A stretch of DNA of 64,000 nt from an uncultured Verrucomicrobiae bacterium (GCA_963836315.1 CAWIJG010000002.1:1447786-1511785); one strand, 5' to 3'; positions 1-43,158 are shown, counted from the stretch's first letter. The notes: generated by a model not told the origin, from the letters alone. Program-made: numbers and translations.

Positions 1-3000
1 CCCGAGTTGCGCCATCAACTCGCGCACTTCCTGCGCGATAAAATGCATGAAATTGACGACGTACTGCGGGTCGCCACTGAACTTCGCGCGCAACTGCGGG
101 TCCTGCGTCGCTACGCCGACGGGGCACGTATTGAGATGACACACGCGCATCATGATGCAGCCGAGTGTGACCAGCGGCGCCGTGGCGAAACCGAATTCCT
201 CCGCCCCGAGCAACGCGGCGACGACGACGTCGCGGCCGGTCTTGAGCTGGCCGTCAACTTCCACGTAAATGCGGCTGCGGAGATTGTTAAGAACCAGCGT
301 CTGCTGTGCTTCTGCTAGGCCGAGTTCCCATGGCGTGCCCGCATGCTTGATGCTCGACAGGGGCGACGCACCCGTGCCGCCATCGTGACCGCTGATGAGC
401 ACCACATCCGCATGCGCCTTCGCGACGCCCGCGGCGACAGTACCCACGCCGATTTCGCTGACGAGTTTCACGCTGATACGGGCGTGCTCGTTGGCGTTCT
501 TGAGGTCGTGAATCAACTCGGCGAGGTCCTCAATCGAATAGATGTCGTGATGCGGTGGCGGCGAGATAAGCCCGACGCCGGGCGTCGAAAAACGCACTTT
601 CGCGATCCACGGGTACACCTTCGCACCGGGCAACTCGCCGCCTTCACCGGGCTTCGCGCCCTGCGCCATCTTGATCTGAAGTTCCTTCGCCTGTGTCAGG
701 TAATGGCTTGTGACACCGAACCGGCCGCTCGCGACCTGCTTGATCGCGGAATTCTTGCTGTCGCCGTTCGCCATCCGTGGATAGCGCCCGGGATCCTCGC
801 CCCCTTCACCCGTGTTGCTCCGCCCGCCGATCCGGTTCATGGCAATCGCCAGCGCCTCGTGCGCTTCCTTGCTGATCGAGCCGTAGCTCATCGCCCCGGT
901 CTTGAACCGTTTGACAATGCTCTCCACCGGCTCGACTTCTTCAATCGGGATTGGTTGTGGCGCGAACTTGAACCCGAACAGCCCCCGCAACGTGCAGAGG
1001 CTCTTCGCCTGGTTATTGACCAGTTCCGAGTACTCCTGGAAGACCTTGTAGTTATTCGTGCGCGTCGAAAGCTGGAGTCGGTGAATCGTCTCGGGGTTGA
1101 ACAGATGGGCCTCACCGTCCTGCCGCCATTGGTACTGGCCGCCGGCATCGAGGGTTGCCCCGTTAATGGGGCGTACGGGAAACGCGTGGCGATGGCGGGC
1201 GCGGACTTCCCCGGCGATGACGTCGATGCCGACGCCTTCGATCTGCGAAGCGGTGCCGGTAAAGTACTTGTCGACGACCGTGTGATTGAGACCGATGGCC
1301 TCGAAGATTTGCGCCCCGCAATAACTCTGGATGGTCGAAATGCCCATCTTGGCCATCGTCTTGACGACGCTCTTGGTCACAGCTTTGAGGTAGTTCTTGA
1401 CCGCCTTCTTGTGGTCGATGTTCTTGAGAATGCCCTGGCGAATCATGTCATCGAGCGTCTCAAATGCGAGGTAGGGATTGATCGCCGCCACGCCGTAACC
1501 GATCAACAGCGCAAAATGATGCACCTCGCGCGGCTCTCCCGATTCGACCACCAACCCGACGCGCGTACGTGTTCCCTTGCGGATCAGATGATGATGCATG
1601 CCCGCGGCGGCCAACAACGCCGGGATCGCCGCGTTCTCGGCGTCGACGCCGCGGTCGGACAGAATCAGGATGTTATGGCCATCCTTGATGGCTTTACTCG
1701 CCTTGACGAACAATCTCTCAAGCGCTTTTTCCAGACCCTTGCCGCCTTCATCCACCCTGAAGAGTGTCGACAGTGTAATGGACTTGAAGCCGGGGCGGTC
1801 AATGTGGCGTAAGCGCTCGAATTCCTCGTTGCTGAGGACGGGACCCTTCAGCCGGATCTGGCGACAGCTCATGGGCTGTGGATCAAGCAGGTTTCCTTCG
1901 GGACCAATGGTCGTGTACGTGGACGTGATGAGTTCTTCGCGAATGCAATCGATTGGCGGATTGGTGACCTGCGCGAACAATTGCTTGAAATAGTTGTAGA
2001 GCAATTGCGACTTGTTCGAAAGTACCGCCAACGGTGTGTCCGTGCCCATCGAACCAAGCGGCTGCACGGCGTCCTTCGCCATCGGCGCCAGGAGGACACG
2101 CAGGTCCTCGAAGGTGTACCCGAACGCCTGTTGCCGCAGCAGCACCGTGGCATGATCGGGTTGATGTACCTGCGACGGCTCCGGAAGGTCTTCGAGATCC
2201 ACCAGGCTTTCCTTGAGCCACACGCGGTACGGGCGTTCGGTGGCGATCGTCTGCTTGATCTCCTCGTCAGCCACGATGCGGCCAAGTTCGGTATCGACGA
2301 GAAACATGCGGCCTGGTTGGAGCCGTCCCTTCTGCAACACGCGTTCGGGGGCAATGTCGAGCACGCCAACTTCCGACGCCATGATGACCTGGTCGTCCTT
2401 CGTCACATAATAACGCGAGGGACGCAACCCATTGCGGTCAAGCACCGCGCCAATCTTGACGCCATCGGTGAAGGCAATCGAGGCCGGACCGTCCCACGGC
2501 TCGATCAGGCAACTGTGGTACTCGTAAAACGCCTTCTTCTCCTCGCTCATGCTTTCGTGCCCCGACCACGGCTCGGGAATCATCATCATCACCGCGTGTG
2601 GGAGCGAGCGTCCGCTCAGCACAAGAAACTCCAGGCAATTGTCAAACATGGCCGAGTCGCTGCCGTCCTCGTTGATGATCGGCAACAGTTTCTTGACGTC
2701 GGCGCCAAACAGATCGGACTCCAATAACGACTCGCGAGCGTGCATCCAATTGATGTTGCCGCGGAGCGTGTTGATCTCGCCATTGTGCGCGACGTAGCGA
2801 TACGGGTGCGCGCGATCCCAACTCGGGAACGTGTTGGTGCTGAATCGGGAGTGCACCAGCGCCAGCGCGGATTCGATAGTGGGGTCAAGCAGGTCGGGAT
2901 AGAACCCCTCGACTTGCTCGGGCATCAGCATTCCCTTATAGACGACCGTCTTGTAGGAAAGGCTGGAGATGTAAAAGCGGTTACCGCCCTTGATGCCGGC

Positions 3001-3567
3001 ATAGCGAATGCCTCGTTCTGCGAGTTTGCGGATGACGTACAGCTTGCGCTCGAACACCATGTCGTCTTTGATCTTCGGGTCGCGCGCGATGAACACTTGG
3101 CGGACGATGGGCTCGGATGCGCGGGCCGTGTCACCCAGAGACGTGTCGCAGGTCGGAACGGTGCGCCAACCGAGCAGGCGATGACCTTCGTTCTCGACGA
3201 GCTCCTCGAAAAGCTTCTCGCACTTGTAGCGCTCGGACTTGTCGGGCGGTAGATACACCATGCCGACGCCGTACTCACCGTACGCGGGCAGTGCGATCTT
3301 CTCCTTGGCGCACTCCTTCTTCAGGAATTCATGCGGGACTTGCATCAGAATGCCCGCGCCATCGCCTGTGTTCGCCTCGCAACCGCACGCGCCGCGATGG
3401 CGCAGATTCATGAGCACCGTGAGCGCTTGGCGAACGATGCCGTGGGACTTCCGTCCCTTCGTGTTCACGACGAAACCGACGCCGCAGGAGTCGTGTTCGA
3501 AACGGGGATCGTACAGTCCCTGTTTCTCCGGCCAGCCGTATGGGGTGATCGGGCGGACGTTACTCAT
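1..3567 (-). CDS. gltB: Glutamate synthase large subunit; N-terminal part only, runs off the left edge
   Basis: Minus-strand frame from ATG at 3567 reads MSNVRP...[18 protein letters not shown]...[18 protein letters not shown] (Ntn amidotransferase N-terminus). It stays open to the window edge, so it is absent from the ORF track. Confidence 0.97.
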
Positions 3568-3994
3568 TGCGTGCGTTCACGAAACTCGCCTTTGGAGCGT
3601 GACTATATGACAAGTTTGCCATGGTTTTTCAACGTCATTGTCCATCTTTCACTAATTTTTTCTCTGGCGTAAATCCGGGAGCGTGGCCTGCATGTTCTCC
3701 AGGAACAGCGAGCCACTTGACAGGTTTCATGACACGATCCAGCGCTTCGACATGCCCTCAGCATACAATAGGACCTGTGTCTTCCACCCGACCGAGCGTT
3801 GGAGGTGGAGGTCGATTACACATCATGCCTTGTGAACTCCGGTACAACATTTTGGGTTTTACCAGCCAGATCTAAGATGTAGAATTATTCACAAATACTA
3901 CTTTTGTGTTGAATTTAATTCAGAAAATAGCAAAATTATGAACGAAAACAAGCGAAATCTTCAGTTTTCTTGAATTGCTGATGAAGGCATAACC

Positions 3995-24835: not shown

Positions 24836-24937
24836 TTCGAAACAACGCCACGCGTCAGCGGCGTAAGTTCGATACTCAATAGAATCGGCTTTTCTTTCGT
24901 CTGGAATTTCGCAGCGTATTCGTTCAGATTGAACGAT

Positions 24938-24995
24938 GGTGATGGGGTTCGCCTGCAACTGCCCCCGCGATGACGGGGCGCTAATGACTCCTACC
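24938..24995 (+). ncRNA. Fluoride riboswitch (crcB motif)
   Basis: GGTGATGGGGTTCGCC...GCTAATGACTCCTAC with an internal GCCCC/GGGGC stem, directly upstream of crcB. Confidence 0.92.
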
Positions 24996-25012
24996 ACGGT
25001 TGAGGGGATGCG

Positions 25013-25441
25013 ATGGTCAGATTCTGGTTGTTGGTATTTGGCGGAGCACTTGGCACCCTGGCCCGGTACGGGCTTAACGGAGTCATCTCCGAGCATCAGT
25101 CGAAACACTTCCCGGTGGCGGTGGTCTTCCCGCTCGGCACCCTCGTCGTCAATGTCAGCGGTTGCTTCGCCATCGGCGTCATCGCGGCGGTGAGCGGACC
25201 CGCCACGGGACGCGCCTGGCTCAAGCCCGAATGGCGCGACTTCCTTATGGTCGGTTTCTGCGGCGGCTACACCACGTTTTCCAGCTACGGACTGCAAACA
25301 CTCAACCTTGCCCGGGATGGCGAGTGGCTCGCGGTCACGCTCAATATCGTTGGCTCGAACGTGCTCGGCTTGCTCGCCGTCTATCTCGGCTGGGTCTGTG
25401 GTCGCGCGCTTCAGGCGAAACTCCATGGAGGTGCATTGTGA
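25013..25441 (+). CDS. crcB: Fluoride efflux channel Fluc/CrcB
   Basis: GGALGTLARY, FPLGTLVVNVSGCF, GFCGGYTTFSSY. Confidence 0.96.
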   Translation: MVRFWLLVFGGALGTLARYGLNGVISEHQSKHFPVAVVFPLGTLVVNVSGCFAIGVIAAVSGPATGRAWLKPEWRDFLMVGFCGGYTTFSSYGLQTLNLARDGEWLAVTLNIVGSNVLGLLAVYLGWVCGRALQAKLHGGAL

Positions 25442-25779
25442 AACTCGAAGGCGAAGGCTCTCTCCTGCGCATTTATCTCGGCGAACAGGACAAATGGCAT
25501 CATCAACCCCTCTACGAGGCGATTGTGCTCAAGGCCCGCGAAATGGGCCTCGCGGGCGCGACTGTCCTCCGCGGCCCGATGGGGTTTGGCGCCAATTCGC
25601 ATCTGCATACCGCGAAGATTCTCCGGCTCAGCGAAGACCTGCCCGTGTTGATCGAGATCGTTGACAAACAAGACCGGATCGACGCGTTCCTCCCCGAACT
25701 CGACAAGATGATGGGCGACGGCCTCGTCACACTTGAGAAAGTGCACATCATCCGCTATCGTGGTACTGGACCGGCCTGA
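25438..25779 (+). CDS. DUF190 family (P-II-like) protein
   Basis: GTG start overlapping the crcB stop; LRIYLGEQDKWHHQPLYEAIV, GATVLRGPMGFG, SEDLPVLIEIVD. Confidence 0.9.
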   Translation: MKLEGEGSLLRIYLGEQDKWHHQPLYEAIVLKAREMGLAGATVLRGPMGFGANSHLHTAKILRLSEDLPVLIEIVDKQDRIDAFLPELDKMMGDGLVTLEKVHIIRYRGTGPA

Positions 25780-25792
25780 TTCCGTTGCTTCC

Positions 25793-26080
25793 ATGCGACT
25801 GCAATATCGCGATGACAATACATCCGTTGCTTTTCGACTGAGCGCATCACATGCGCAACATGTTTCGTTGGTCGTCCGCCTGGCCAGGGGCGACAAAACA
25901 ATGACTCGCGGCATGCGCAAAGGCATCGATGGCGTCTGGCATGCCAAAGTGGAATTGACTCGCGGACGCCATATGTATCGCTTTCTTGTGGACAACGCGC
26001 CCACGCTCGACCCCGCATCCCGCGGTGACATCACCGACGAACACGGTGCCGTGTGGAGCACGTGCGAAGTTGGCCATTGA
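25793..26080 (+). CDS. Small CBM48/AMPK-beta-like glycogen-binding domain protein
   Basis: VAFRL..HAQHVSLV...MRKGIDGVWHAKVEL.RGRHMYRFLVD..PTLDP pattern. Confidence 0.7.
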   Translation: MRLQYRDDNTSVAFRLSASHAQHVSLVVRLARGDKTMTRGMRKGIDGVWHAKVELTRGRHMYRFLVDNAPTLDPASRGDITDEHGAVWSTCEVGH

Positions 26081-26097
26081 GTCGCCATGTTGCTCGA

Positions 26098-31316: not shown

Positions 31317-31427
31317 GAAGACCTTCGGCCCGACAAACCGGCGCGGCTATAGGAGAGCGCCCAGCCGCAGGTCTGAGGCTTCGGGAAAACCGTTGGCAGA
31401 AGGTATGATTATGGATAGCATGCGGGC

Positions 31428-32303
31428 ATGAACAAGCTTCCGGATACGGTTCGGATTGAGGCGGGACGGGGTGGGTTGCGCCGCCTGGTGATTGGGACGG
31501 CACAGGCTGACGCGGAGATCTATCTGCAGGGGGCGCACGTGACGCATTTCCAGCCGCACGGTGCAAAACCGGTGCTGTTCATGAGCGCGAAGAGTTGGTT
31601 CGAACCAGGCAAACCGATTCGCGGCGGGGTGCCGATTTGTTTTCCGTGGTTCGGCCCGCGACAGGACGGGAAACCGGGCGCCGCGCACGGGTTCGCGCGG
31701 TTGCTGGAGTGGGAATTGACCGCGGCGGAGCAGGTCGGCGATGGCCCCGTCGAAATCGGGTTGCGGCTGGTGTCCAACGACGCGACCCGCAAGGAATGGG
31801 ACGGAGAATTTGAAGCGGAGTACCGCGTGACCGTCGGCGCGGCGCTGGGCTTGCGGTTGCGCGTACGGAATACCGCCCAACAGCCATTGCGCATCGAGGA
31901 AGCACTGCACACCTATTTGGCGGTTGATGATGTACGGCAGGTGACCATCGAAGGGTTGGCGGGCACGGCGTATTCGGACCGGGTCGGGACGCCCCACGAG
32001 GAGACCGAAGGCGCGGCCCCCATTCGCATCACGGCCGAGACGGACCGGATCTACAGGAACACGCATGCCATGTGTGTGGCGCACGACCCCGGTTGGAAGC
32101 GGCGGTTGGTGATCGAGAAGACCGGCTCGGACGCCACGGTCGTGTGGAATCCATGGATTGCCAAAGCCAAGGCGATGCCTGATTTCGGCGACGACGAATG
32201 GCCGTCGATGTTGTGCATCGAAACCTGCAACGTCCGCGAGCACGCCGTGACCATCGCGCACGGCCAGTCGCACGGCATGGGAGCCGTCATTCGCGTGGAA
32301 TGA
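31428..32303 (+). CDS. D-hexose-6-phosphate mutarotase (YeaD-like aldose 1-epimerase family)
   Basis: QGAHVTHF, PIRGGVPICFPWFG, HGFAR, EALHTYL, VVWNPW, MLCIE. Confidence 0.93.
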   Translation: MNKLPDTVRIEAGRGGLRRLVIGTAQADAEIYLQGAHVTHFQPHGAKPVLFMSAKSWFEPGKPIRGGVPICFPWFGPRQDGKPGAAHGFARLLEWELTAAEQVGDGPVEIGLRLVSNDATRKEWDGEFEAEYRVTVGAALGLRLRVRNTAQQPLRIEEALHTYLAVDDVRQVTIEGLAGTAYSDRVGTPHEETEGAAPIRITAETDRIYRNTHAMCVAHDPGWKRRLVIEKTGSDATVVWNPWIAKAKAMPDFGDDEWPSMLCIETCNVREHAVTIAHGQSHGMGAVIRVE

Positions 32304-32424
32304 ACCGCCACCGCTTGGCGGATTCTTTCCCGGCGGCGGATGTTCCCGACACAGATGCGCCTGGCATCCGGATGATTTACCCCTTGCCGACCTCGGGTAC
32401 TGCCAGTAGCTTTCACGACCTCTC

Positions 32425-34302
32425 ATGTTGACGATCTCGGAAATGACGAAGGCGTTTGGGGCGCGCGTGCTCTTTGAGGACGCGTCGCTGCAGGTCAATC
32501 GTGGCGACCGCATCGGGTTGGTCGGGCCGAATGGCGCGGGCAAGTCCACATTGTTCTCACTCGTGCTCGGCCACGATTGGCCCGACGCGGGCGAGGTGTC
32601 CATCGAACGCAACACGACCGTCGGTCATCTGCCGCAGGAAACGGCGCCGGTCGGCGACGAGACGGTGTTGGAGTTGGCGACAGCCATTCCGGCGGAAGCC
32701 GCTGAATTTCTTGGCCAGCAACTCGCGCCGAAGGCGAAGAAGATTCTGGCCGGGCTGGCGTTTCGTGAACGGGATTTCGACCGTCCGCTGAAGGCGATGA
32801 GCGGCGGCTGGGTGATGCGGGCGCACCTGGCCCGGTTGCTCGTGCAAGAGCCGGATCTGCTGCTGCTCGACGAACCGACCAATCATCTCGACCTCGAAGC
32901 GTTGCGGTGGTTCCAGGAATACTTGAAAACGTATCCCGGCGGAATCGTGGTTATCTCGCACGACCGTGAGTTTTTGAACCAACTCGTCGGCAGCATTGTG
33001 GACATTCGCCAGAGCCGGTTGCTGCGGTATCGCGGCAACTACGACGAGTATCTGGTCCAGCGCGCGGCGCAGGCGGAGCAGCATCTGGCGGCTTACAAGA
33101 ACCAGCAGCGCGACATCCAGCGGCTGCAGGAGTTCGCCGACCGGTTTCGCGCCAAGGCCAGCAAAGCCTCGCAGGCCCAGGCCAAGCTCAAGCAGATCGA
33201 ACGCATGGACAAGATCGAGGCGCCGGTGAACGAAGCGCGGTCGATCAAGTTCCGATTCCCGCAACCGACGCGCAGCGGACAGCGCGTCATCACCCTCAAG
33301 GGCATCCACCACGCCTACGGCGAGACCGTGGTGTATCGCGGTATGAACTTCGAGGCCGAACGCGGTCAGCGCATCGTGCTGGTCGGCCCGAACGGCGCGG
33401 GCAAGTCCACGCTGTTGAAACTCCTGGCCGGGGTGTTGCCGGTACAATCCGGCACGCGCGAACCAGGTTTGAACACGAAGGTGGGGTACTACGCCCAGTA
33501 TCGCGTGGAGATGCTGAACGCCGATCGCACCGTGGTCGAAGAAGCGCTCGACACCCCGCAGCGGGTGTCGGAGCAACTCGTGCGCACCGTGCTCGGTTCG
33601 TTTCTGTTTCGCGGCGACGACGTATTCAAATCGGTCGGCGTGCTCAGTGGCGGCGAGAAAAGCCGGTTGGCGTTGGTCAAACTGTTGCTCGATCCGCCGA
33701 ACCTGCTGTTGATGGACGAGCCGACCACGCACCTAGACATGGCGAGCATCGATGCGCTGATTCACGCGCTCGAGCATTACGAAGGCACGCTGATCTTCAT
33801 CAGCCACGATGTGTATTTCATCCGCAAACTGGCGAAACACGTCCTGCACGTGAACGCCGGCAAACTCACACCGTACCACGGCGACTACCAGTACTATCTC
33901 GAGAAATCCGCCGCCACCTCGGCGCAGGCGGCCCTCACCGCCGGTGCGACCAAAACGGCCACGCCCGCCGTTGTCCCCGCCGATCGTTCGCGCGTGAAGG
34001 ATCGCGAGCGAAAGCGGTTCGAAGCCGAAGCCCGTCAGGCGCGGGCGCGCGAACGGCAGGCGCTGCAGCACACCGTGCGCGAACTGGAGAAGGAAATCGC
34101 GCGACTGGAGCAATTGCAGAAGGACTTCACCGCGGAGTTGGAGAATCCCGAGACCTACCAGAAACCCGGTCGGGCCGTGGCGGTGAACCGGGAATTGAGC
34201 GCCGTCACCGAAGATCTCGCGCGCACCGTGGCGGATTGGGAGGAAGCCGGAACGCGGCTGGGCGAGTTGTTGGCGGAGGCCGCGCCGTCGCCCCAAAAAT
34301 AA
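32425..34302 (+). CDS. ABC-F family ATP-binding protein
   Basis: Two GPNGAGKS Walker A motifs, MSGGW and LSGGEK signatures, two DEPTN/THLD motifs, inter-ABC linker, C-terminal coiled coil. Confidence 0.95.
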   Translation: MLTISEMTKAFGARVLFEDASLQVNRGDRIGLVGPNGAGKSTLFSLVLGHDWPDAGEVSIERNTTVGHLPQETAPVGDETVLELATAIPAEAAEFLGQQLAPKAKKILAGLAFRERDFDRPLKAMSGGWVMRAHLARLLVQEPDLLLLDEPTNHLDLEALRWFQEYLKTYPGGIVVISHDREFLNQLVGSIVDIRQSRLLRYRGNYDEYLVQRAAQAEQHLAAYKNQQRDIQRLQEFADRFRAKASKASQAQAKLKQIERMDKIEAPVNEARSIKFRFPQPTRSGQRVITLKGIHHAYGETVVYRGMNFEAERGQRIVLVGPNGAGKSTLLKLLAGVLPVQSGTREPGLNTKVGYYAQYRVEMLNADRTVVEEALDTPQRVSEQLVRTVLGSFLFRGDDVFKSVGVLSGGEKSRLALVKLLLDPPNLLLMDEPTTHLDMASIDALIHALEHYEGTLIFISHDVYFIRKLAKHVLHVNAGKLTPYHGDYQYYLEKSAATSAQAALTAGATKTATPAVVPADRSRVKDRERKRFEAEARQARARERQALQHTVRELEKEIARLEQLQKDFTAELENPETYQKPGRAVAVNRELSAVTEDLARTVADWEEAGTRLGELLAEAAPSPQK

Positions 34303-34476
34303 CTATTGCTATTCTGGCGGGATGCCCTATGGTTACGGAGCTAGCAGATAGAAGCAGTTGCAGTGAGATTGGTGGAATGTCAGTCAGGCCTCGCAGCTCG
34401 GTGACAGTCCGAAACCCGAATCGTTCGGGAACAGTCACTGAGACCTCCTAATCGCAGCAGAAAGAATAAACACATA

Positions 34477-34806
34477 ATGGCTACCAAGCTATTCGTAGGA
34501 AATCTGTCGTTCAACACCAGCGAAGGGGACATCCTCGACCTGTTCAAACAGGCGGGCAACGTCACCAGCTGTGAACTCATCATGGACAAGTTCACCAACA
34601 AGTCCCGTGGGTTCGCCTTCGTGCAAATGGGCACGCAGGAAGAGGCCACCAAGGCCATTGCCGATCTTAACGGCAAGGAATTGGATGGTCGCGCGTTGAC
34701 CGTCAACGAAGCCAAGCCCCGTGAAGACCGCCCCCGTGGCGGTGGCGGCGGTTTCGGCGGTGGCGATCGCGGTGGACGCAAGTTCGCCGGCAGCAATCGC
34801 TTCTAA
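34477..34806 (+). CDS. RRM (RNP-1) RNA-binding protein with Gly-rich tail
   Basis: KLFVGNL (RNP2), KSRGFAFVQM (RNP1), LTVNEAKPREDR, GGGG tail. Confidence 0.95.
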   Translation: MATKLFVGNLSFNTSEGDILDLFKQAGNVTSCELIMDKFTNKSRGFAFVQMGTQEEATKAIADLNGKELDGRALTVNEAKPREDRPRGGGGGFGGGDRGGRKFAGSNRF

Positions 34807-34834
34807 CCCTTTTCAGAGTTAGTCGTTCAAACAG

Positions 34835-34870
34835 AAAGGCGTCCCGTGCAAACGGGGCGCCTTTTCTTTT
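34835..34870. terminator. Intrinsic, probably bidirectional terminator
   Basis: AAAGGCGTCCCG-tgcaaa-CGGGGCGCCTTT-TCTTTT between two convergent genes. Confidence 0.85.
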
Positions 34871-34888
34871 GGCTCGGTCTCGCGGCTT

Positions 34889-35302
34889 CTATTCCAACCC
34901 CACCGGCCGGCGGGATTGTTTCTTCTCGCCATGACGGGACTTGTTGTCGAGCATCCGCTGGGTGGCGCGTCGGCTGCGACGACGTTTCTGGCGGCGGATC
35001 TTTTCGACGCGCGTGCGCTCGGCATCGACGTAACCCTTTTTGAGCGCCTCGATCTTGTCGAGCAGGAGACGTCGTGCGAGATAGCGATTGAGCCCCTGCG
35101 AGCGCGTGGTCTGGCATTTGACCTGGAGACGTGTCGGGCCGTGGAGCAACATCACGCACGTGGCGGTCTTGTTGACGTTCTGGCCGCCGTGACCGCCTGA
35201 ACGGACGAACGTCTCTTCAATGTCGGCTTCCCGCACGCCGAGCGCGGCCATGCGCTGCGCGAGTTGGGTTTCCTTCTCCGGGCTGACAGGGAACGCGCTC
35301 AC
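34889..35302 (-). CDS. arfB: ArfB/YaeJ-like peptidyl-tRNA hydrolase (stand-alone RF-1 domain)
   Basis: FVRSGGHGGQNVNK, VKCQTTRSQGLNR, basic C-terminal tail. Confidence 0.85.
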   Translation of the reverse strand: MSAFPVSPEKETQLAQRMAALGVREADIEETFVRSGGHGGQNVNKTATCVMLLHGPTRLQVKCQTTRSQGLNRYLARRLLLDKIEALKKGYVDAERTRVEKIRRQKRRRSRRATQRMLDNKSRHGEKKQSRRPVGLE

Positions 35303-35407
35303 GACCCCAGCGTAACCGGCCCTGGCTGGAAAGACAATGGAGAGGTGCGGCTTTTTCGTTGATGCGCGCGCCGCGGGACGTTACAAGATTTGAGGGCGGT
35401 GATTCTG

Positions 35408-35454
35408 ATGAGCAAACCGATTCGTGTCATTCAATATGGACTGGGCGCCATCGG
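35408..35454 (+). repeat. 47-bp direct repeat, left copy (5' end of the FKBP gene)
   Basis: 42/47 identical to 41555-41601; the last 26 nt are identical. Confidence 0.9.
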
Positions 35455-36859
35455 ACTGTGCACCATCGTCCTCGCGCCCGCCTTACCTCAACCGACGCCG
35501 GCTGTCATCTCTGCGACTCCCGTGTCGGCCTTTACCGATCAGCAAATCATCGAGACCTGGGGCTGGATCATCGCGCAGGAGCACAAAGTCGCCGGGATCG
35601 AGATCAAGGAAACCGAGATTCGCGATTTCTTGAAAGGGTTTTTCGCCGGTGTCAAGGGTCAGCCATCTCCGTACGATTCGCAAAAAGCGTATCCGAACGT
35701 GGAACGGCTGGCCAAAGCGCGGCGGAAACAAGTCGTGCGCGCCATCGAGCAGAAGAATGAGGCTGAGGCCAGGGCATTCTTCGACGGACTGAAGCTGAAT
35801 CCAGGCGTCGTCGAACTACCCGGTGGCGCCCGGTGTGAAATCATCAAACGCGGCAGCGGTCCCTTGGCGAAGCCGCAGCAGACCGTGAACGTGCACTACA
35901 CCGGACGCCTTATCAATGGCGGGGAGTTTACCCAATTCGGGCCTCTTGATATGGTGCTGGTGCCCAATCGAAGCGTTTGCCGTGGCTGGTTCGACGCGGT
36001 GCAGAAGATCAACAAGGGCGGCACGATCAAGCTGTACGTTCCGCCGCCACTGCCTGAAGATGAGGCTCTCAAGTGGGGCATTCCGCCGGGCTCGATGATG
36101 GTTTTTGAAATCGAATTGCTCGCCATCAAGGAGACTTCCGCGCAGGATTTGGAGAACGCCTTGATTCCGCCGGCACCGGACCTCGAGCCGCCTCCGCCTT
36201 CCGGCTATAGCGAGTCACAGGTCCTCGAGTGCTGGGGCTGGAACATTGCGCGGAATGCGCGCGCCAACAAATGTGAATTGAGTGACGCGGAGATCTCCTG
36301 GCTTGCGAACGGTCTTGCCGCCGGGATCAAAGGCGAACCATTGTCGGTCAACCCGCAAGAAATCGGTTCGGTCTTGGATAAGTTTGTCGCCGACCGCCGT
36401 GAACGAATCCGCAGTGCGGATCGGCGGAAACAGTTTGACGAGATGAATCGGTTCTTCTCCGGGCTGGAGGCGAACACGAATGTCGTCGAACTGCCCGACG
36501 GGTTGCGTTACGAAATCATCCATCCCGGCGGCGGTCCGTATCCGAAACCGGGTCAAATTGTGCTCGTGGACTACACTGCGAGCCTGCTCAATGGAACGGT
36601 GTTCGACAAGACTTATAACGAACCACTGCACGTCCAGATCGGGTCGGTCATCCCGGGTTGGAATGAGGGAATCCAAAAGATTAACAAGGGCGGCAGGATC
36701 AAGCTCTACATTTCGCCCTCGCTTGGCTACGGGGACGAGGACTCATCCGGCGTCGTGGCGCCCATCCCGGCCAACTCGACGCTGATTTACGACATTGAAC
36801 TGCTGGACATCCAGGATGCGCCCGAGAACGCCCCCGCGCCTTCCCCGGGGAAAAAGTGA
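35408..36859 (+). CDS. Tandem-duplicated Mip/FkpA-type FKBP peptidyl-prolyl isomerase
   Basis: Two FKBP_N + FKBP_C modules (VHYTGRLING...GW...KGGTIKLYVP; VDYTASLLNGTVFD...VIPGWNEG...LGYG); start at ATG 35408. Confidence 0.9.
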   Translation: MSKPIRVIQYGLGAIGLCTIVLAPALPQPTPAVISATPVSAFTDQQIIETWGWIIAQEHKVAGIEIKETEIRDFLKGFFAGVKGQPSPYDSQKAYPNVERLAKARRKQVVRAIEQKNEAEARAFFDGLKLNPGVVELPGGARCEIIKRGSGPLAKPQQTVNVHYTGRLINGGEFTQFGPLDMVLVPNRSVCRGWFDAVQKINKGGTIKLYVPPPLPEDEALKWGIPPGSMMVFEIELLAIKETSAQDLENALIPPAPDLEPPPPSGYSESQVLECWGWNIARNARANKCELSDAEISWLANGLAAGIKGEPLSVNPQEIGSVLDKFVADRRERIRSADRRKQFDEMNRFFSGLEANTNVVELPDGLRYEIIHPGGGPYPKPGQIVLVDYTASLLNGTVFDKTYNEPLHVQIGSVIPGWNEGIQKINKGGRIKLYISPSLGYGDEDSSGVVAPIPANSTLIYDIELLDIQDAPENAPAPSPGKK

Positions 36860-36861
36860 GC

Positions 36862-38904
36862 TTACGGTTGGTTGCGGTTGAGATCCCCGACCGGTTTCCC
36901 GCGCAATTGCGCAAGTGTTTCAGAAGCGTCGGATAAACCCGGGTCAAGCTGCAAAGCCTGCTCCAAATGGCGGATGGCTTCCTCGGTTTTCTCCAGTGTC
37001 GCCTCCGCCAGTCCCAGCCCCAAATATGCAGCGGCATAGTTGGCCCGGCTGTCGATCGCAGCCTGAAAATGCGGGATGGCGTCTGCCATCTGGTTCCGGC
37101 TGAAGAGCAGGACACCGACATTGTATTGGGCGTCGGCGAATCCCGGCCTCAACTCAATTGCGTGACGATACTTGTCCAACGCCTCCTCGGAGCGGCCCAA
37201 ATCTTCCAGCGCCGAGCCGAGTCCGTAATAAGCGTTGGCGTCGTTTGGATCCAGTGCCAATGCCCGATGGTAGTGCGCGCAGGACTCGTCTGCACGATTG
37301 AGAGCTCGGAGCGAATCGGCCAAACTGCATTGGGCATGCGCGAAATTTGGATTCAATTGGAGGACCTTTTCATAATGCGACAACGCCTCGTAATCGCGAT
37401 TGAGAAAGGCCAGGGCATTGGCATAGCGGTAATGCGCCTCGGCGTGGTCCGGCTTGATCCTCAACACCTCCGCGTAGGCGGCCAACGCCTCGTCGCTATG
37501 GCCAAGTCTTTCAAGGACGATCCCGAGTCGGAAACGGGCGGTGACGTAATCGGGTTTGATTTCGAGCGCGCGTCGAAAATAAAAGCGGGCCTTGTCGAGA
37601 CGACCCTCATTGAACAAAGCGCTGCCGAGATAACAGTGGGCCAGATAGTTGTTTTCCGTCACGGCCAGCGCATGTTCATAAAGAGTATGCGAGTTCTGCC
37701 AGACTGCCAGTTGATTCCATGTGCGGGCCGCGCAACCCGCCAGCGCCAGCGCGACCGCTGCGGTCGCCAGCCTCCGCGTGGTTGAAGAAGACAACGTCCA
37801 TTCGCGCACCGTCCAAAGCAGCGCGAGTTGCACGCCGAGGATCGGCAGGTAGGTATAACGGTCGGCCTTGGCCTGAAGTCCTACCTGCACGAGCCCGATG
37901 ACCGGCACGAGCATGCCGAGAAACCACAGCCAGCCCGTCGCCAACCACGGACGTCGGCGCCATTGCCACAGCGCCACGCCAGTGACCGCCAGCGTCAGCA
38001 CGGTTCCGACCGCCACGGTGGCGACCGGCCAGTGCCGGGGAAGCGGGTACCCCACCGCCAAATCGAATGGCCAAAAGAACTTGCCAAGATAACTGACAAC
38101 CGACATTACGGCATTTTCCAGCCGAACATCAAAGGACAACCTCTCGGCGACGGCGCCGCCGTTTCTTTGGACGAGATACGTCACAACGCACGACGCGGCC
38201 GACAATGCGAAGAACGGCGTTTTCTCGAGCCAAAGCGAGGCGGTTATCCCTGTCGAACCGGCACGTCGTAGCGGCCACCGGTCGAGAAGCAACAACAGAC
38301 ACGGCAATGTCACCAGCATGGGTTTGGACAGGAGCCCAGCCGCAAACGCCGCAACGGCGAGCATGTAATGTCGCCACGCCAGGGGATTGTTTTCCTGGCG
38401 CTTCTCCGCATAGACAGCGTACGCCCAGAGGGTCAGCAGCCCGAAGAAAGCGCAGAGCAGATCCTTGCGTTCGGACACCCACGCCACCGACTCGACGCGC
38501 AGCGGGTGCCACGCGAACAACGCGGCACACACGGCGCTCGTCCAAAACGCACCCGTCAGTCGTCGTAGCGCAAGGAACGCCATTACCGCGTTGAGTGCGT
38601 GCCAAAAAATGTTTGTGGTGTGGTGTCCGTGCGGATTGGATCCGAAGAGTTGGCAATCCAGCATGTGCGAGAGCCACGTGAGCGGATGCCAGTTGCCGGC
38701 ATCGCCCGAAGTGAATGCCCACTGGATTCCCGTCCTGGTGATTCCACTTTGAACATGGATATTCCGGGTAATGTAATCCGGATCGTCGAGGTCGAGAAAA
38801 TCATGGTTCACCGCGCGACTGAAGAGCAACAGCGTGCCGCAAAACAGCGTGGCGCAGACGGCGTACAAGCGCCAGCCGGACCGTTCCGCCGTCGGCCGTT
38901 TCAT
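36862..38904 (-). CDS. TMTC-like membrane glycosyltransferase (GT-C) with C-terminal TPRs
   Basis: DFLDLDDPDY, WHPLTWLSH, FAWHPLRVESVAWVSERKD, SKPMLVT, DRYTYLP, followed by about 6-7 TPRs. Confidence 0.88.
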   Translation of the reverse strand: MKRPTAERSGWRLYAVCATLFCGTLLLFSRAVNHDFLDLDDPDYITRNIHVQSGITRTGIQWAFTSGDAGNWHPLTWLSHMLDCQLFGSNPHGHHTTNIFWHALNAVMAFLALRRLTGAFWTSAVCAALFAWHPLRVESVAWVSERKDLLCAFFGLLTLWAYAVYAEKRQENNPLAWRHYMLAVAAFAAGLLSKPMLVTLPCLLLLLDRWPLRRAGSTGITASLWLEKTPFFALSAASCVVTYLVQRNGGAVAERLSFDVRLENAVMSVVSYLGKFFWPFDLAVGYPLPRHWPVATVAVGTVLTLAVTGVALWQWRRRPWLATGWLWFLGMLVPVIGLVQVGLQAKADRYTYLPILGVQLALLWTVREWTLSSSTTRRLATAAVALALAGCAARTWNQLAVWQNSHTLYEHALAVTENNYLAHCYLGSALFNEGRLDKARFYFRRALEIKPDYVTARFRLGIVLERLGHSDEALAAYAEVLRIKPDHAEAHYRYANALAFLNRDYEALSHYEKVLQLNPNFAHAQCSLADSLRALNRADESCAHYHRALALDPNDANAYYGLGSALEDLGRSEEALDKYRHAIELRPGFADAQYNVGVLLFSRNQMADAIPHFQAAIDSRANYAAAYLGLGLAEATLEKTEEAIRHLEQALQLDPGLSDASETLAQLRGKPVGDLNRNQP

Positions 38905-40152
38905 TGTGACGCCGACTGACCCTTGAGCGTCGCGATGACCCCGGTGATTTCTTGTCGGTCTTCCGGCAGCAGGTCCTTGGTCGTTTGGAAATACCGTTCG
39001 GCTGCGGGAAGATCAACCGTCACCCAATTCCGCAGCACTGTAACCAAGGTTTCCGAGCGCAGCTTGGGGTTGACGACGCTGACAGCCCAGCTGATTGCCA
39101 AATCGGGTTTGAGGGAATCCATCGTTGCCACTGCCGCAGCACCCTGATCCGTATCCGGCCCGGTCTCGTGGCTATTGATCCATTGGGAGGCCGCTTCGGG
39201 ATCATGTTTGACCCAACGTTCCAGCGACTGGCTCAGTAGCGAGCCGCGCTCGGCATCCGACGGCAACTGCATCACGAACTGAACGAGTGCTGCGGGATCA
39301 GCTTCCGCCCAGCCGCCGACGATGCCATGGAGCGCCTGATTTCTCACGTCCGGGTCTTCGATGGCAGCGGCCGCCTGGGAGGCTTGCGCCGGCTGGAATT
39401 CCGCCCATCGTGAATACGCTCCGGCCATCCAGCCCGAACGGGTTTCCTCGTCGCCGGCGGCGGCCATGTGGGCGGCGGTTTCAAAGTCGCCCGCATCGCA
39501 CAAGGCGTTGATCAAGCTGGAGCCATACCCGCGGGCTTCGTCGGGGTTATTGCGAATCAGGGACAGGCCAAGGGCCACCGCACCGTCGGGATTGGCGGCA
39601 ACCGCACCAGTAAACACTGTTGATAGCGCCCTTTCGCGATCATTGGAATCGGGCAAGGCGAGCGCCCAACTGGCGGCGTTGGTCGGTGACGAGCGCGCCC
39701 AGCCGCGCAACGAGGCTTGGACCAACGCTTCGCGCAATTTCAAGTTGCCTTCGGCTTGGGCGACGGTCATGGCGCGGGTGGGATCAACAGCCGCCAGTTT
39801 TTCCAACAGGTTGGCGAGCGTGGCGTTGCGCGTGGGAGTACCGGGTTTGGACAACGAGCATGTTGCCATTGTTGTTCACCCCAACCCGACAGCGGTGCCG
39901 GGGTTGCTTGAGTCTGGGTTTCAGCAACGGAAGCGGCAATCGGCTTACCGGCGGATGAGGTGACGCCTTCGCCGCACGCGGGCGATATGGAATTGTTGGA
40001 TTGTGCCTGAGGCGATTCCGGGCGCGCCTGGTTGGACCGTGAAAGTCGGCCGACGCAAGAAACAAACCACTCCCGATTACAATACCGCCGCACAGTGTCA
40101 GCGACTTATTCCAGCGAGACTTGACGAAGCGGAAGTGCAGGCACCGGATCAT
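38901..40152 (-). CDS. Membrane-anchored helical-repeat hypothetical protein; one gene broken by two apparent frameshifts (about 40040 and 39855)
   Basis: TM segment in the frame of 39784..40152, Ser/Pro linker in the frame of 39767..40093, and repeats (WAxxDPxAAxxW type) in 38901..39869 join into one coherent protein. Confidence 0.65.
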
Positions 40153-40235
40153 TAATCGATTTACCGGCCTGAGACAACTATGGGGACAAGGCGAGTGCCA
40201 AGATCCCCATAGCGTGAAGCAGGCAGACGACCTTG

Positions 40236-41079
40236 TTATTGCAGCGTCGAGTTCGTTACGACGACGTTGCGAGAGGTCATCCTTGTTCTTGTTGCCATAG
40301 GTATGGCAGGCGTCGAGATGATCTTGCCCGTGTTATGGTTGTGATCAATACCGTGGGCGGAATCGCCCGCCGTATTGTTATAAGCGGGCAACTGAAGTAA
40401 GTGATGCGCGACGTTGTCGCCGGTGATGCCCAGTCTTAAAGCCGTTGCCGTTGCCCGTCTTGCCATTCCAACTGCCTTCATTGTAGGACTTGCAGCCGCT
40501 GGTGACTGACCGCGCTGGCGGCTTTTCAAGGTCGAAGCCGTCATCCGAGTTCTGATGGGCGTCGCAATTGGTGAATTTATTCCCCGAGCTGGCGCCCTGT
40601 TTGCAGCCGTAGCCATCCGCGTTTCCGCCCGAGCTGTCGGCGTTTTGCTTGCTAATGCAGTTGTTAACGGTGTTGTTCTTTGCGCTGCTGCCGATGAGTT
40701 CAATGCCCGTGTTGTAGTTGCCCACGGCGGTGCAGGATTGGATGCTGCATGACGAGCCGTACACGATGATGCCATGGTTCGCACCCGTCACGGTGAAGCC
40801 TGAGAGGGTCACACCGCTATTGCCCGACGGCACATAAAAGCCGTCCGCATTGGCTCCGGTGGTGAATTGGAAGGTGGCCGACCCTTTGACGGTCACACCG
40901 CTCGGCACCTGGATTCTTGTGCTGATACCACCATACGTGCCGGACACACTGACTGTTTGTCCAGACTTCGCGGCTTGGATCGTGGCCACGATGGCATTGT
41001 TCGCCTGGGCCACTGAACAACCCAGTAGAACAGCGACTGCCGCCAGACCTACATACTTACGACCAGGACTGTTTGACAT
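40236..41079 (-). pseudogene. Secreted right-handed beta-helix protein, PL9 (PelL-like) type, with several indels (may be sequencing error)
   Basis: Signal peptide; NADGYGCK, NSDDGFDL, GNGNGFK-LG, GIDHNHN motifs; the C-terminus continues in other frames to the stop at 40236. Confidence 0.65.
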
Positions 41080-41554
41080 AACTCTGTCTCCTATCTGTAT
41101 CTGTTGTTCCCGTTGTTTGGTTTATCCTGCCTCACCGAATCGTGAAAAACGGATATTGGGATCCCCTCGCAATAGACGAAAATCGAAGTAAAGCGGCCAG
41201 GATGGCCTGAGAGCGATACGATGTGTGCAGACACAATAACCAACGCCTACCTTCCGCCAGGGTTGATATCAGAAGCTGATTTTAGAGTAACAGGGCTCGA
41301 GACTTCGCGTCTATACGACGTTCTGCAAGATTCAGTGAATTTACTGCGTGGAGGCGAAAAAAATTTAGTGGACTAAACCCGGTCTTGGTTTTTCGCGGGA
41401 GAGGTGGCATGGAATTCCGGAGAGACTGACGCCGGAAGGAAGAAACAGTTACGTTCAAAGGTTGGTGGGACGAACGGATGCACGAACGCGGCACCCGGCT
41501 TTTTCATTGAAGCAGTTGCAGCAAGGGGCTACAAAGCAGGGAGCGAGCGACATC

Positions 41555-41601
41555 ATGGACAAACGAATTCGTGTTATTCAATATGGACTGGGCGCCATCG
41601 G
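41555..41601 (+). repeat. 47-bp direct repeat, right copy (5' end of the dehydrogenase gene)
   Basis: 42/47 identical to 35408-35454. Confidence 0.9.
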
Positions 41602-42557
41602 GTGCGCGACGGCGCGCCTGGTATTGAGCCGGCCGGGACTGCAATTGGTCGGCGCGGTCGACCGCAATCCGAAACTGGCGGGCAAGGATTTGGGCGACGT
41701 GCTCGGCGTGGATCGCAAGCTCGGCATTGTCGTGACGGACAAGCCGGTGATCCTGTTTGCGCAGACCCCGGCGGACGTGGTGATTCATTGCACGACGTCG
41801 AGCTTTGTCGAAGCCTACGAGCAACTCACGGAGATCGTGCGGGCGGGCCTGCATTGCGTGACCTCATGCGAAGAAGCGCTGTTCCCGTACTACCGCCACA
41901 AGGTGCTGGCGGGAAAGCTCGACGATTTGTGCATCCAGAAATCCGCCGCGGTGGTCGGCACAGGCGTCAACCCCGGGCTGGTGATGGACACGCTGGCGTT
42001 GCTGCTCACTTTGGCGTGTCAGCGCGTGGACGCGGTGCGCGTGATGCGCGTGGTTGATGCGGCGCACGCGCCGCGAAGCGTTGCAGCGCAAAGTGGGGGC
42101 GTCCCTGAGCGAATCGCAATTCAACAAGCTGAACCGGCAACGCAAAGTCGGGCACGTCGGCCTGGCCGAATCGCTCGTGTTTCTGGCGGACGGGCTGGGG
42201 TGGGCGCTGGACGAATTGAATGAGAGCGTGACGCCTGTGATTGCCAAGAAGACGGTCAAGACGAAGTTTCTCACCGTGCCGAAGGGCGCGGTCGCGGGCA
42301 CGCGACAATTTGCGCGCGGCACACGCGGCGGCATGGAAATACTGACCCTGGAATTGCAGATGTACATCGGCGCGCCGAACCCGCGCGACATGATCGAGAT
42401 CGTTGGTAGACCGCCCCTGAGCCTGGTGATTGAAGGCGGCGTGCCGGGCGACGTGGCCACACCGGCGATCCTGGCCAACACGTTGCCACGGCTCATCGAA
42501 TGCCGGCCCGGGCTGCACACGATGCGCACGCTCGGCCTGCCGCGGATGACGCTCTGA
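41555..42557 (+). CDS. NAD(P)-dependent oxidoreductase of the 2,4-diaminopentanoate dehydrogenase / amine dehydrogenase-like family; frameshift near 42066
   Basis: IQYGLGAIG Rossmann motif, CVTSCEE, GTGVNPG; the second frame (42054..42557) supplies RREALQRKVG, HVGLAES, GGVPGD.AT. Confidence 0.8.
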
Positions 42558-42559
42558 TC

Positions 42560-43093
42560 ATGTCGAACATCGTCTACTTCGACCTGGAGACCCAGAAGAG
42601 CGCGGCGGAAGTCGGCGGCTGGGACCGGAAACGCGACATGAAAATGTCGGTGGGCGTCACCTACAACACAGGTGACGGTCAGTATCGGATTTTCCCCGAG
42701 GACAAGGTTGCCGACCTGGTCCGGCAACTCACGCGGGCGGACATCGTCGTCGGCTTCAACATCATCAATTTCGATTACGAAGTGCTTCACGGCTACACGC
42801 CGCTCGATTTGCACGCGACCCCGACACTCGACCTGATGGCCGATCTGGAATTGAAACTCGGGCACCGGCTCTCGCTCGATTCCATCGCCAAGGCCACGCT
42901 CAACGCGCCGAAGGTGGCGGACGGCCTGCAGGCGTTGAAATGGTGGAAGGAAGGCCGGATCCTGGAGATCGCCGAGTATTGCTGTTTCGACGTGAAGATC
43001 ACCAAGGAACTCCACGAATTTGGCCGGCAACACGGCGAAGTTTCCTACATCGACCGCCTCGGCCAGAAACGCAGCGTCAAGGTGAAGTGGTAG
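42560..43093 (+). CDS. RNase H-like (DEDD, YprB/RNase_H_2-type) nuclease
   Basis: YFDLETQ, VVGFNIINFDY, SLDSIAKATL, EYCCFDV. Confidence 0.85.
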   Translation: MSNIVYFDLETQKSAAEVGGWDRKRDMKMSVGVTYNTGDGQYRIFPEDKVADLVRQLTRADIVVGFNIINFDYEVLHGYTPLDLHATPTLDLMADLELKLGHRLSLDSIAKATLNAPKVADGLQALKWWKEGRILEIAEYCCFDVKITKELHEFGRQHGEVSYIDRLGQKRSVKVKW

Positions 43094-43158
43094 GGCGGTC
43101 CGAGAACTTTGTCGGCTGGTTTTGACAGATCACTCACAGATTGCGTATTCTGTTTCCC

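Follow-up and report, generated by a model that had tools for sequence, protein, structure and literature searches.

A direct repeat in a 64,000-nucleotide stretch of DNA from an uncultured Verrucomicrobiae bacterium (the window in what follows, with positions counted from its first letter) brackets a 6.1-kb block of four genes, and its two copies open a gene for an FKBP-type chaperone and a gene for an Ord/DapB-like NAD(P)-dependent dehydrogenase (hereafter the dehydrogenase). The locus is best explained by insertion of the block, a four-gene envelope cassette, 47 nt into the dehydrogenase coding sequence, with the displaced dehydrogenase start being reused by the FKBP gene; the probability of this explanation as a whole is put at about three in four. 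The event would have taken place in the common ancestor of the organism and at least two metagenomic relatives; the dehydrogenase gene otherwise stands directly beside arfB. The cassette encodes an exported double FKBP chaperone, a membrane protein with TPR (tetratricopeptide) repeats, a PL9-like beta-helix protein, and a helical protein. On the left, the promoter-like leader of the resident gene was left behind with its start codon and 16 codons, replacing the promoter, start, n-region, and first half of the h-region of the FKBP, and a second leader with a 16-codon copy at the right end keeps the dehydrogenase gene complete.

A repeat search recovered exactly the pair claimed in a preliminary description of this DNA, namely 35408-35454 and 41555-41601, which are identical at 42 of 47 nt (89%) with a start-to-start spacing of 6147. 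All 5 mismatches lie within the first 21 nt, the last 26 nt are perfect, and the similarity ends abruptly downstream, between nucleotides 47 and 48. With up to 3 mismatches tolerated, the 26-mer ATTCAATATGGACTGGGCGCCATCGG still has only two occurrences in the window, and none of 100 dinucleotide-preserving shuffles yielded a match; in the whole genome only two repeat copies were found, both at this locus. The left copy opens an open reading frame (ORF), MSKPIRVIQYGLGAIG, for a 483-aa protein with two FKBP_N/FKBP_C units, and the right copy opens an ORF, MDKRIRVIQYGLGAIG, for a dehydrogenase with DapB_N and DAP_DH_C domains. Weaker similarity extends for about 60 nt upstream of both ATGs (35349-35407 versus 41497-41554), across the promoter-like dehydrogenase leader, and the duplicated unit is therefore about 107 nt long. 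The abrupt downstream stop thus stands as first described, but 47 nt is not the full extent of the repeat. The features at the two junctions are as follows.

35349-35407, plus strand: left (resident) dehydrogenase leader GGCTTTTTC, with TTGATG at 35359-35364, a 17-nt spacer, TACAAG at 35382-35387, and a 5' untranslated region (UTR); now precedes the FKBP gene.
35408-35454, plus strand: left repeat copy, dehydrogenase codons 1-16 (MSKPIRVIQYGLGAIG), now FKBP codons 1-16.
35408-36859, plus strand: chimeric FKBP gene, consisting of the dehydrogenase stub, the rest of the native signal peptide, and a double FkpA-like FKBP; 483 aa.
41497-41554, plus strand: right dehydrogenase leader GGCTTTTTC, with TTGAAG at 41507-41512, a 17-nt spacer, TACAAA at 41530-41535, and a 5' UTR; divergent, precedes the dehydrogenase gene.
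41555-41601, plus strand: right repeat copy, dehydrogenase codons 1-16 (MDKRIRVIQYGLGAIG).
41555-42557, plus strand: dehydrogenase gene, whose two pieces match Pfam DapB_N and DAP_DH_C; full read-through gives 333 aa.

The preliminary description had proposed that the block integrated at the 5' end of the dehydrogenase gene and had suggested comparing relatives for arfB beside that gene. Such empty sites were found in three lineages. (Handles beginning with L denote loci and those beginning with P denote proteins; G002 is the closest relative in GTDB.) In G002 (loci L024/L044) the order is an ABC-F gene, an RRM gene, arfB on the minus strand, then, after 105 nt of spacer, an intact dehydrogenase gene (333 aa) and an exonuclease gene. 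The same arrangement is seen in L074, a 182-kb JGI contig with a dehydrogenase 90% identical to that of the window, and in the ENA contig encoding P0121 (dehydrogenase 93% identical; gene calls only). When G002 was aligned to the window, two segments were obtained, 31399-35454 (94%) and 41499-43094 (92%), with the repeat as their overlap. The genes flanking the site are listed below.

34477-34806, plus strand: gene for an RRM-type RNA-binding protein (Pfam RRM_1, E=6e-23), the resident left flank; in the same position in the empty-site relatives L074 and the P0121 contig.
34889-35302, minus strand: arfB-like peptidyl-tRNA hydrolase gene with an RF-1 domain (Pfam RF-1, E=6e-22), the left neighbor of the insertion site; 97% aa identity to arfB of G002, which lies 105 nt from the dehydrogenase gene.
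42560-43093, plus strand: RNase H-fold exonuclease gene (Pfam RNase_H_2), the right neighbor of the dehydrogenase gene; found after it in every congener locus long enough to show the position.

The left leader is contiguous with arfB as it is in G002, L074, and L045 and is 84% identical to the G002 leader, and the left repeat copy matches the start of the G002 dehydrogenase gene at 45 of 47 positions (hand count from the printed sequences). Because the left leader and stub join arfB in the same way as in the empty sites and match the dehydrogenase leader of G002, they represent the resident dehydrogenase start, and the origin first proposed for the FKBP stub is upheld.

Two further loci are filled. 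L046, on a noisy 14.7-kb ENA contig whose left flank is 99.6% identical to that of the window, runs from arfB and the stub::FKBP fusion through PL9 to the dehydrogenase and exonuclease genes and carries both junctions; L045, a 3.8-kb JGI locus (~89% identical), contains RRM, arfB, stub::FKBP, and the membrane-TPR gene and carries the left junction. Since two independent assemblies hold the same filled locus, it is not an assembly artifact, and misassembly, which had been named as one finding that would overturn the insertion, was not borne out. A chimera of assembly, or a chance resemblance of the FKBP N-terminus to the dehydrogenase start, might have been suspected in a 17-contig assembly with local frameshifts. 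Either can hardly be credited, given that the same junctions recur in assemblies from other samples, the divergence of the L045 stub keeps pace with that of its flanks, the similarity covers 105 nt of non-coding leader contiguous with arfB, and the shuffles gave no chance matches. An exact-junction search of the GTDB genomes returned no match.

Empty sites could in principle also arise if the block were ancestral and had been deleted through the direct repeats in the lineages of G002, L074, and P0121. The 26-nt identical core could support such a loss, the product (left leader joined to right body) would look like G002, and flank identities of 92-94% do not cleanly part G002 from L045. Against deletion, the left leaders of the window and L045 share derived 5' UTR changes, GATTTGA(G/A)G, which the empty-site leaders lack; the latter carry the genus-consensus 5' UTR GACACGGAGCG. 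Within the 779-nt region covering RRM, arfB, and the leader, 10 sites support the split of the window, L046, and L045 from G002 and L074, and the alternative splits are supported by 5 and 1. Deletion would further require three independent precise losses, and the cassette is absent from 16 of 17 congeners, with PL9 lying within 1.5 kb upstream of the dehydrogenase gene in 0 of 19 relatives' loci. The data are read most simply as one insertion, made in the ancestor of the filled clade, and an ancestral block with repeated loss is improbable.

The FKBP gene is fused in frame, at about codon 17, to the dehydrogenase leader, start codon, and 16 codons, which encode the Rossmann beta1 strand and GxGxxG motif. 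A regular-expression check showed that 119 of the 120 best FKBP homologues lack a dehydrogenase-like N-terminus, and every homologue inspected, including that of the congener G012, has an unrelated classical signal peptide of similar length. The sole exception, P0001, is the FKBP of L045; it is 84% identical, sits in the same arfB neighborhood, and starts MSKPIRIICHGLGVIG-LSAILLAQ/ETN. Orthologues in other neighborhoods thus do begin differently, in agreement with the capture first proposed. The L045 protein keeps the orthologue-type cleavage region LLAQ/ETN (AQ/E(T/P)N in P0007 and G012), and the junction therefore replaced the n-region together with the front half of the h-region, the rest being native. 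The preliminary description had credited the FKBP gene with dehydrogenase codons; these it has, but it also gained the promoter-like leader, 5' UTR, and start codon. By inspection, the only other in-frame start before the mature FKBP domain is GTG at codon 39, which has no obvious Shine-Dalgarno sequence and would yield a protein without a signal peptide. As this is the only alternative, the FKBP would depend on the captured ATG, UTR, and promoter, and the gene is probably transcribed and translated from the captured dehydrogenase start.

The FKBP has been under purifying selection since the fusion. Between the window and L045, dN/dS (the ratio of nonsynonymous to synonymous divergence) is 0.25, or 0.20 for codons 61 to the end, which is essentially the mature protein, and a 7-codon indel directly behind the signal peptide leaves the reading frame intact. 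Synonymous divergence (dS) is 0.31 for FKBP and 0.26 for arfB, so cassette and flank have co-diverged since the fusion. Over the same comparison the 16 stub codons gathered 5.7 nonsynonymous and 1.3 synonymous changes, so they have been released from strict Rossmann constraint. Both hybrid N-termini have an n-region charge of +2, at least 18 uncharged aa in a row, and a maximum KD12, a crude hydropathy measure, of 2.4-2.5; native orthologue signal peptides reach 2.2-2.9 and dehydrogenase N-termini 1.1-1.5. By this crude measure, the features of a Sec-type (signal peptidase I) signal are present: charge, an h-region, and small residues at APA/LP in the window and LAQ/ETN in L045. Judging from this hydrophobicity and from the purifying selection, the hybrid MSKPIR-VIQYGLGAIGLCTIVLAPA probably works as a Sec signal peptide. 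Inspection led to the rejection of ...IGLC... as a lipoprotein motif, as Leu at -1 is unfit for a lipobox and L045 has Ser for Cys. Codons for L-G-(V/A), similar to GLGA of the dehydrogenase, are found in the orthologues' native signal peptides, a likeness that is only suggestive of microhomology with a donor at the left joint. Across its 26 identical nucleotides (35429-35454), the left stub of the window is unchanged; in the L045 stub, 6 of 47 nt have changed, and 5 of these changes fall inside the 26-mer; short-tract gene conversion between the 26-nt copies, or adaptation of the L045 signal peptide, could account for this.

The remaining features of the block are the following.

36862-38904, minus strand: polytopic membrane protein of 680 aa with C-terminal TPR repeats (TPR families); called TMTC-like in the preliminary description.
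38901-39869, minus strand: helical protein of 322 aa, a cassette member by synteny.
40236-41079, minus strand: PL9/Pel9A-like right-handed beta-helix gene with a signal peptide (Pfam Beta_helix and Pel9A-like).
41080-41496, no strand: spacer upstream of PL9, 417 nt; 50.6% GC in the 41000-41499 bin.

The cassette was found in 1 of 17 congeners (G012), on a contig other than the one with its dehydrogenase gene and with an FKBP 52% identical to that of the window. Beyond the filled clade, the closest FKBPs share 62-66% identity with that of the window, compared with 81-93% for the dehydrogenase within the genus. From the absence in 16 congeners and the distance of the nearest FKBPs, it follows that the module is foreign to this lineage. 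GC content was considered as a mark of foreign origin and discarded, as the block (0.58-0.63) shows no contrast with its flanks (0.60-0.64). The same four genes in the same order were found in L047, L049, L050, L052, and L058, with the first three of them in L054 and L057, where the contig then ends; G012 has the four in a different order. The strand pattern, FKBP(+), membrane-TPR(-), helical(-), PL9-like(-), recurs on many Verrucomicrobiae-type metagenome contigs. The contexts of these copies elsewhere are unrelated, with none beside a dehydrogenase gene and no dehydrogenase fragment present.

The origin of the right-hand copy was considered against the conservation of dehydrogenase starts in general. 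The dehydrogenase gene is single copy in 17 of 17 congeners and is also present in most family members searched. Wherever found, its product begins MS(E/K/N/Q)PIRVIQYGLGAIG and its leader reads GGCTTTTTCGTTGA(A/T)G-N17-TACAAG-UTR, and the gene upstream of the leader varies between genomes. The two repeat-copy leaders have in common the promoter-like motif TTGAnG-N17-TACAA(G/A). Across the genus, the leader and first 47 nt show 85-90% nucleotide identity, synonymous sites included, at dS 0.7-1.0, and they are conserved in the family too, less strictly (loci L024-L042 and L060-L073). The 26-mer is itself conserved in the dehydrogenase genes of close relatives, because it encodes the Rossmann motif, and its identity between the two copies thus needs no att function; in family members it differs at several positions. 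From its conservation across 33 dehydrogenase loci, the leader is taken to be a putative promoter. A sigma-70 consensus scan did not call it, its -10 element having no final T, and the promoter reading therefore draws on conservation only. This degree of conservation below a changing upstream gene suggests an unrecognized element for cis-regulation or translation initiation, together with a recurrent synteny breakpoint immediately upstream of GGCTTTTTC. The leader has no match in Rfam, and Rfam and tRNA scans of the region gave nothing relevant.

Against this background the right leader has a non-resident look. Its identity is 65% with the left copy, 71% with G002, and 74-76% with G003, G017, and G004 (68-76% across congeners), and blastn with the right leader matched the leaders of G003, G017, and G004 before that of G002. 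Homology to dehydrogenase leaders begins at 41494-41497. The odd part of the right copy comprises the leader and codons 2-7, with the peculiar states MDKR and CATTGAAGCAGTTGCAG; no N-terminus beginning MD was found among 120 dehydrogenase homologues. A search for an MDKR-like source yielded only distant xxKRIR/xxDRIR homologues (62-64% and 73% identity), and none of the three leaders checked matches the right copy. In a maximum likelihood tree, the left copies of the window and L045 form a clade with 84% support, and the right copy stands apart from it on a long branch; a tree that makes the right copy the sister of the left ones has an expected likelihood weight of 0.16, the unconstrained tree one of 0.76. 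The dehydrogenase body from about 41574 is 92-94% identical to G002 (dS 0.24), with 16 lineage-specific synonymous changes in the window and 19 in G002, and reads as vertical, resident-type sequence. On these nearly equal counts a foreign origin of the whole gene was rejected. A crossover further inside it, considered because Cys17 is as in G003, was dropped since the two closest among the empty-site relatives, P0121 and P0122, share Cys17. For the L045 lineage the right junction was sought through PL9 homologues, and the only close contig, L099 (1.1 kb), ends before it.

The simple attL/attR-like duplicate of the preliminary description did not survive this comparison, for the left copy is resident and the right copy, being much more divergent, may be foreign. 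There is a weak indication that the right leader arrived with the cassette from another lineage, and likewise that recombination was anchored in the conserved 26-nt dehydrogenase start, with no target duplication on the spot. Anchored recombination would have taken the form of one-sided homology-facilitated illegitimate recombination (HFIR) or of homologous transfer of an already filled locus, and the left joint might be a secondary deletion. Among mechanisms, a foreign right leader is somewhat more likely, a target duplication of about 107 nt less likely, and an integrase-borne island unlikely.

Several points weigh against the insertion as set out here, or against parts of it. A resident origin of the right leader was not rejected by the approximately unbiased (AU) test (p = 0.27), and the divergence of the right copy from G002, about 33% over 79 positions outside the 26-mer (hand count), is only modestly above the synonymous p-distance of 20.5% between the window and G002. 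A donor with the cassette beside a dehydrogenase gene was not found in about 15 cassette- or dehydrogenase-bearing contigs, and none was present in the protein collection, the metagenome scan, or 11 contig look-ups. One-sided illegitimate recombination makes the placement of both joints within a 26-nt stretch coincidental. Export of the FKBP is deduced from crude hydrophobicity and purifying selection, and the cleavage region in the window reads APA/LPQP where orthologues have AQ/E, which makes its cleavage less certain than that of the L045 protein. The frameshifts in the dehydrogenase and PL9 genes reflect either decay of the locus or assembly indel errors.

Some of these points would suit duplication of the target in place, in which insertion by staggered breaks with fill-in, or by template switching, duplicated the leader and 47 nt and the right copy then diverged fast, through relaxed constraint or because divergence protected the insert from repeat-mediated deletion. 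A single event would then explain why both junctions end at the same nucleotide, the AU test leaves the right copy as sister to the left ones unrejected, the neutral distance between the window and G002 is already 20.5%, and no donor arrangement was found. Lineage-specific codon changes in the dehydrogenase number 11 nonsynonymous and 16 synonymous in the window and 3 and 19 in G002; the excess of amino acid changes may reflect relaxed selection after the insertion, and with a frameshift in the gene as well, its leader might drift. Set against this, the right leader is about 33% off G002 at free positions, compared with 84% identity for the left leader and with the 85-90% that leaders normally retain at dS 0.7-1.0. 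It is also nearer to G003, G017, and G004 than to its supposed parent, the likelihood weights are 0.16 versus 0.76, and we know of no insertion mechanism that makes a target duplication of about 100 nt. Duplication in place is accordingly regarded as a tentative alternative, with well under an even chance.

The favored route, recombination anchored in the dehydrogenase start, has parallels. HFIR has been described for conjugation in E. coli as well as for naturally transformable bacteria (PMC3240628), and an analogous model has type VI secretion effector modules displaced serially while anchored in a conserved upstream gene (PMC5361080). As in HFIR, homology would be confined to one end, with a joint in a conserved stretch (the 26-nt dehydrogenase start), the other joint stops abruptly and would lack homology, no dedicated recombinase is involved, and the inserted DNA is foreign (absent from 16/17 congeners; FKBP 62-66% versus dehydrogenase 81-93%). 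The non-resident look of the right leader beside a resident-type body from about 41574 might suit a graded homologous joint, a resident origin of the leader being unrejected (AU p = 0.27). Both joints here lie inside one 47-nt segment, which is not known to be typical of HFIR.

SXT, in work by Hochhut and Waldor from 1999, is reported to supply a new promoter and N-terminus for prfC. The locus resembles integrative elements that target gene 5' ends in the SXT/prfC manner (PMC4344509) in that a divergent promoter and first codons would have been brought in, the target stayed whole, and the resident 5' end was displaced. It differs from them in having no integrase, att-type element, or conjugation genes, and in that the displaced resident 5' end was fused in frame to the first gene of the insert instead of being left as a dead remnant. 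An island placed by an integrase at an attB in the dehydrogenase 5' end, with its own replacement leader and N-terminus, as with SXT/R391 elements at prfC, and with the integrase since lost or acting in trans, would account for the perfect 26-nt core at both ends and for a right copy that restores the target with a divergent 5' end, which is typical of elements targeting gene ends. No recombinase was found in the block or the 64-kb window, however; the nearest PF00589 match in a whole-genome search lies about 165 kb away, in line with the remark in the preliminary description that the block holds no integrase, and Pfam searches of all block ORFs gave none. Four genes fill the block, the cassette occurs elsewhere at unrelated sites without a dehydrogenase fragment, neither a tRNA nor terminal inverted repeats were found, and the 26-mer, conserved in close relatives as Rossmann code, needs no att role. 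Of what marks a site-specific island, then, an identical core at the junctions is present, and a recombinase and same-target or att-bearing copies elsewhere are absent. Such an island is very improbable. Nor does the block look like a transposon or insertion sequence: no transposase family was matched among its ORFs (Pfam), no inverted match of at least 8 nt was found between the insert ends, and the repeat of 47-107 nt compares with target duplications of 2-15 bp.

A more speculative, and doubtful, possibility is that the cassette is an integrase-free mobile module whose carried dehydrogenase leader and 16 codons served both as a homology arm, by way of the conserved 26-nt Rossmann stretch, and as a repair patch, the resident start being recycled as promoter and half signal peptide for its first gene. 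If true, this would be a gene-restoring mobile module that travels between lineages without a recombinase of its own.

Random-sequence replacement experiments by Kaiser and co-workers in 1987 are said to have shown that signal peptides tolerate much sequence variation. Signal peptides were commonly gained and lost in a survey of Enterobacterales (PMC5952966). The hybrid FKBP start is like known signal-peptide replacements in that an unrelated N-terminal segment takes over the n- and h-region role, charge and hydrophobicity being sufficient. It is unlike the surveyed gains in that its source, the Rossmann beta1/GxGxxG segment of a neighboring cytosolic enzyme, can be traced to the nucleotide, a promoter and translation start came along, and only the front half was replaced. 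The ingredients of the case are already known, namely insertion at a 5' end with a second gene start, anchoring in a conserved stretch, and replacement of the front half of a signal peptide. What is unusual is the in-frame reuse of a displaced gene start as promoter, translation start, and half signal peptide, with a source known to the nucleotide. The locus thus offers a dated, nucleotide-resolved natural case in which the start and Rossmann beta1/GxGxxG of a cytosolic enzyme became the front half of a predicted export signal, in a chimera that survived purifying selection over species-level divergence (dS ~0.3). It illustrates the low sequence specificity needed by the n/h-region, the tolerance of intragenic insertion when a second copy of the gene start is present, and the use of a conserved coding stretch as a landing pad for foreign DNA. 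It also forms a simple testable system, made up of two natural hybrid signal peptides, the Rossmann segment from which they derive, and the native signal peptides of orthologues. It is an evolutionary case of gene-start capture, and no new molecular machine or system is revealed.

The dehydrogenase is, by its domains, assigned to the Ord/DapB-like amine dehydrogenase family: it has both DapB_N and DAP_DH_C, and the G002 orthologue scores 267.8 against the NCBIfam Ord model (cut-off 400). A surplus G at 42064 splits its frame in the window into two ORFs; neither G002 nor the near-identical L046 has this G, which represents either beginning pseudogenization or an assembly indel. In many congeners (G004, G005, G011, G012, G031, and G034) the gene just upstream of the dehydrogenase is a homologue of window 24898-26083, which lies about 10 kb further left here; the 26.1-35.3 kb segment is thus itself an older insertion upstream of the dehydrogenase leader, holding ABC-F, RRM, and arfB and shared with G002. 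In L097, from a distant relative, a PMT/PMT_2 glycosyltransferase gene (2221-3813) lies directly upstream of the dehydrogenase gene (73% identical) on the same strand; it has no relation to the cassette but belongs to the functional area of the membrane-TPR protein. At 34813-34872 on the plus strand, between the RRM gene and arfB, sub-threshold Rfam matches were obtained to ctRNA_p42d (28.8 bits) and BjrC68 (25.5 bits); the element is most likely a terminator hairpin.

The FKBP of the cassette contains two units each of Pfam FKBP_N and FKBP_C and is fkpA/BamJ-like in NCBIfam, scoring 183.9 against fkpA PRK10902 (cut-off 215) and 100.3 against BamJ (cut-off 100, one domain only). It is like FkpA-type periplasmic FKBPs in combining the FKBP_N dimerization/chaperone and FKBP_C peptidyl-prolyl isomerase domains and in the signal peptide present in every orthologue inspected, and unlike FkpA in its tandem-duplicated unit, its score below the fkpA cut-off, and its membership of a conserved four-gene module. 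The membrane-TPR gene is syntenic in other cassette copies; its N-terminal 400 aa have no Pfam match, and a weak PMT_2 match was seen for the L046 fragment only. For the helical protein, profile searches gave no family above threshold, and orthologues 70-73% identical occupy the same cassette position in L047, L049, L050, and L052. In another frame upstream of its gene (39784-40152, minus strand) lies an ORF with a transmembrane-like segment, SLTLCGGIVIGSGLFLASADF, resembling the N-terminal anchor that the longer versions of the protein in G012 and L047 carry. The gene may start earlier than 39869 or contain a frameshift. The 3' end of the PL9 gene (40236-40450, the last ~75 codons) contains three frame changes, through frames -3, -1, -3, and -1, by tblastn with the L047 orthologue. 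PL9 is intact in L046 and L099, with a clearly different 3' allele (the L099 relative is 281 aa), and the most divergent part of the block between the window and L046 is 39870-40400. The 417-nt spacer has no similarity to sequence upstream of the dehydrogenase gene in relatives. As a guess, the cassette may serve the folding or modification of secreted beta-helix proteins. Among the cassette loci L043, L047, L049, L050, L052, L054, L057, and L058, some carry extra PL9 paralogues, and the PL9 of the window is 84-86% identical to one L047 paralogue, the other cassette proteins being 62-71% identical.

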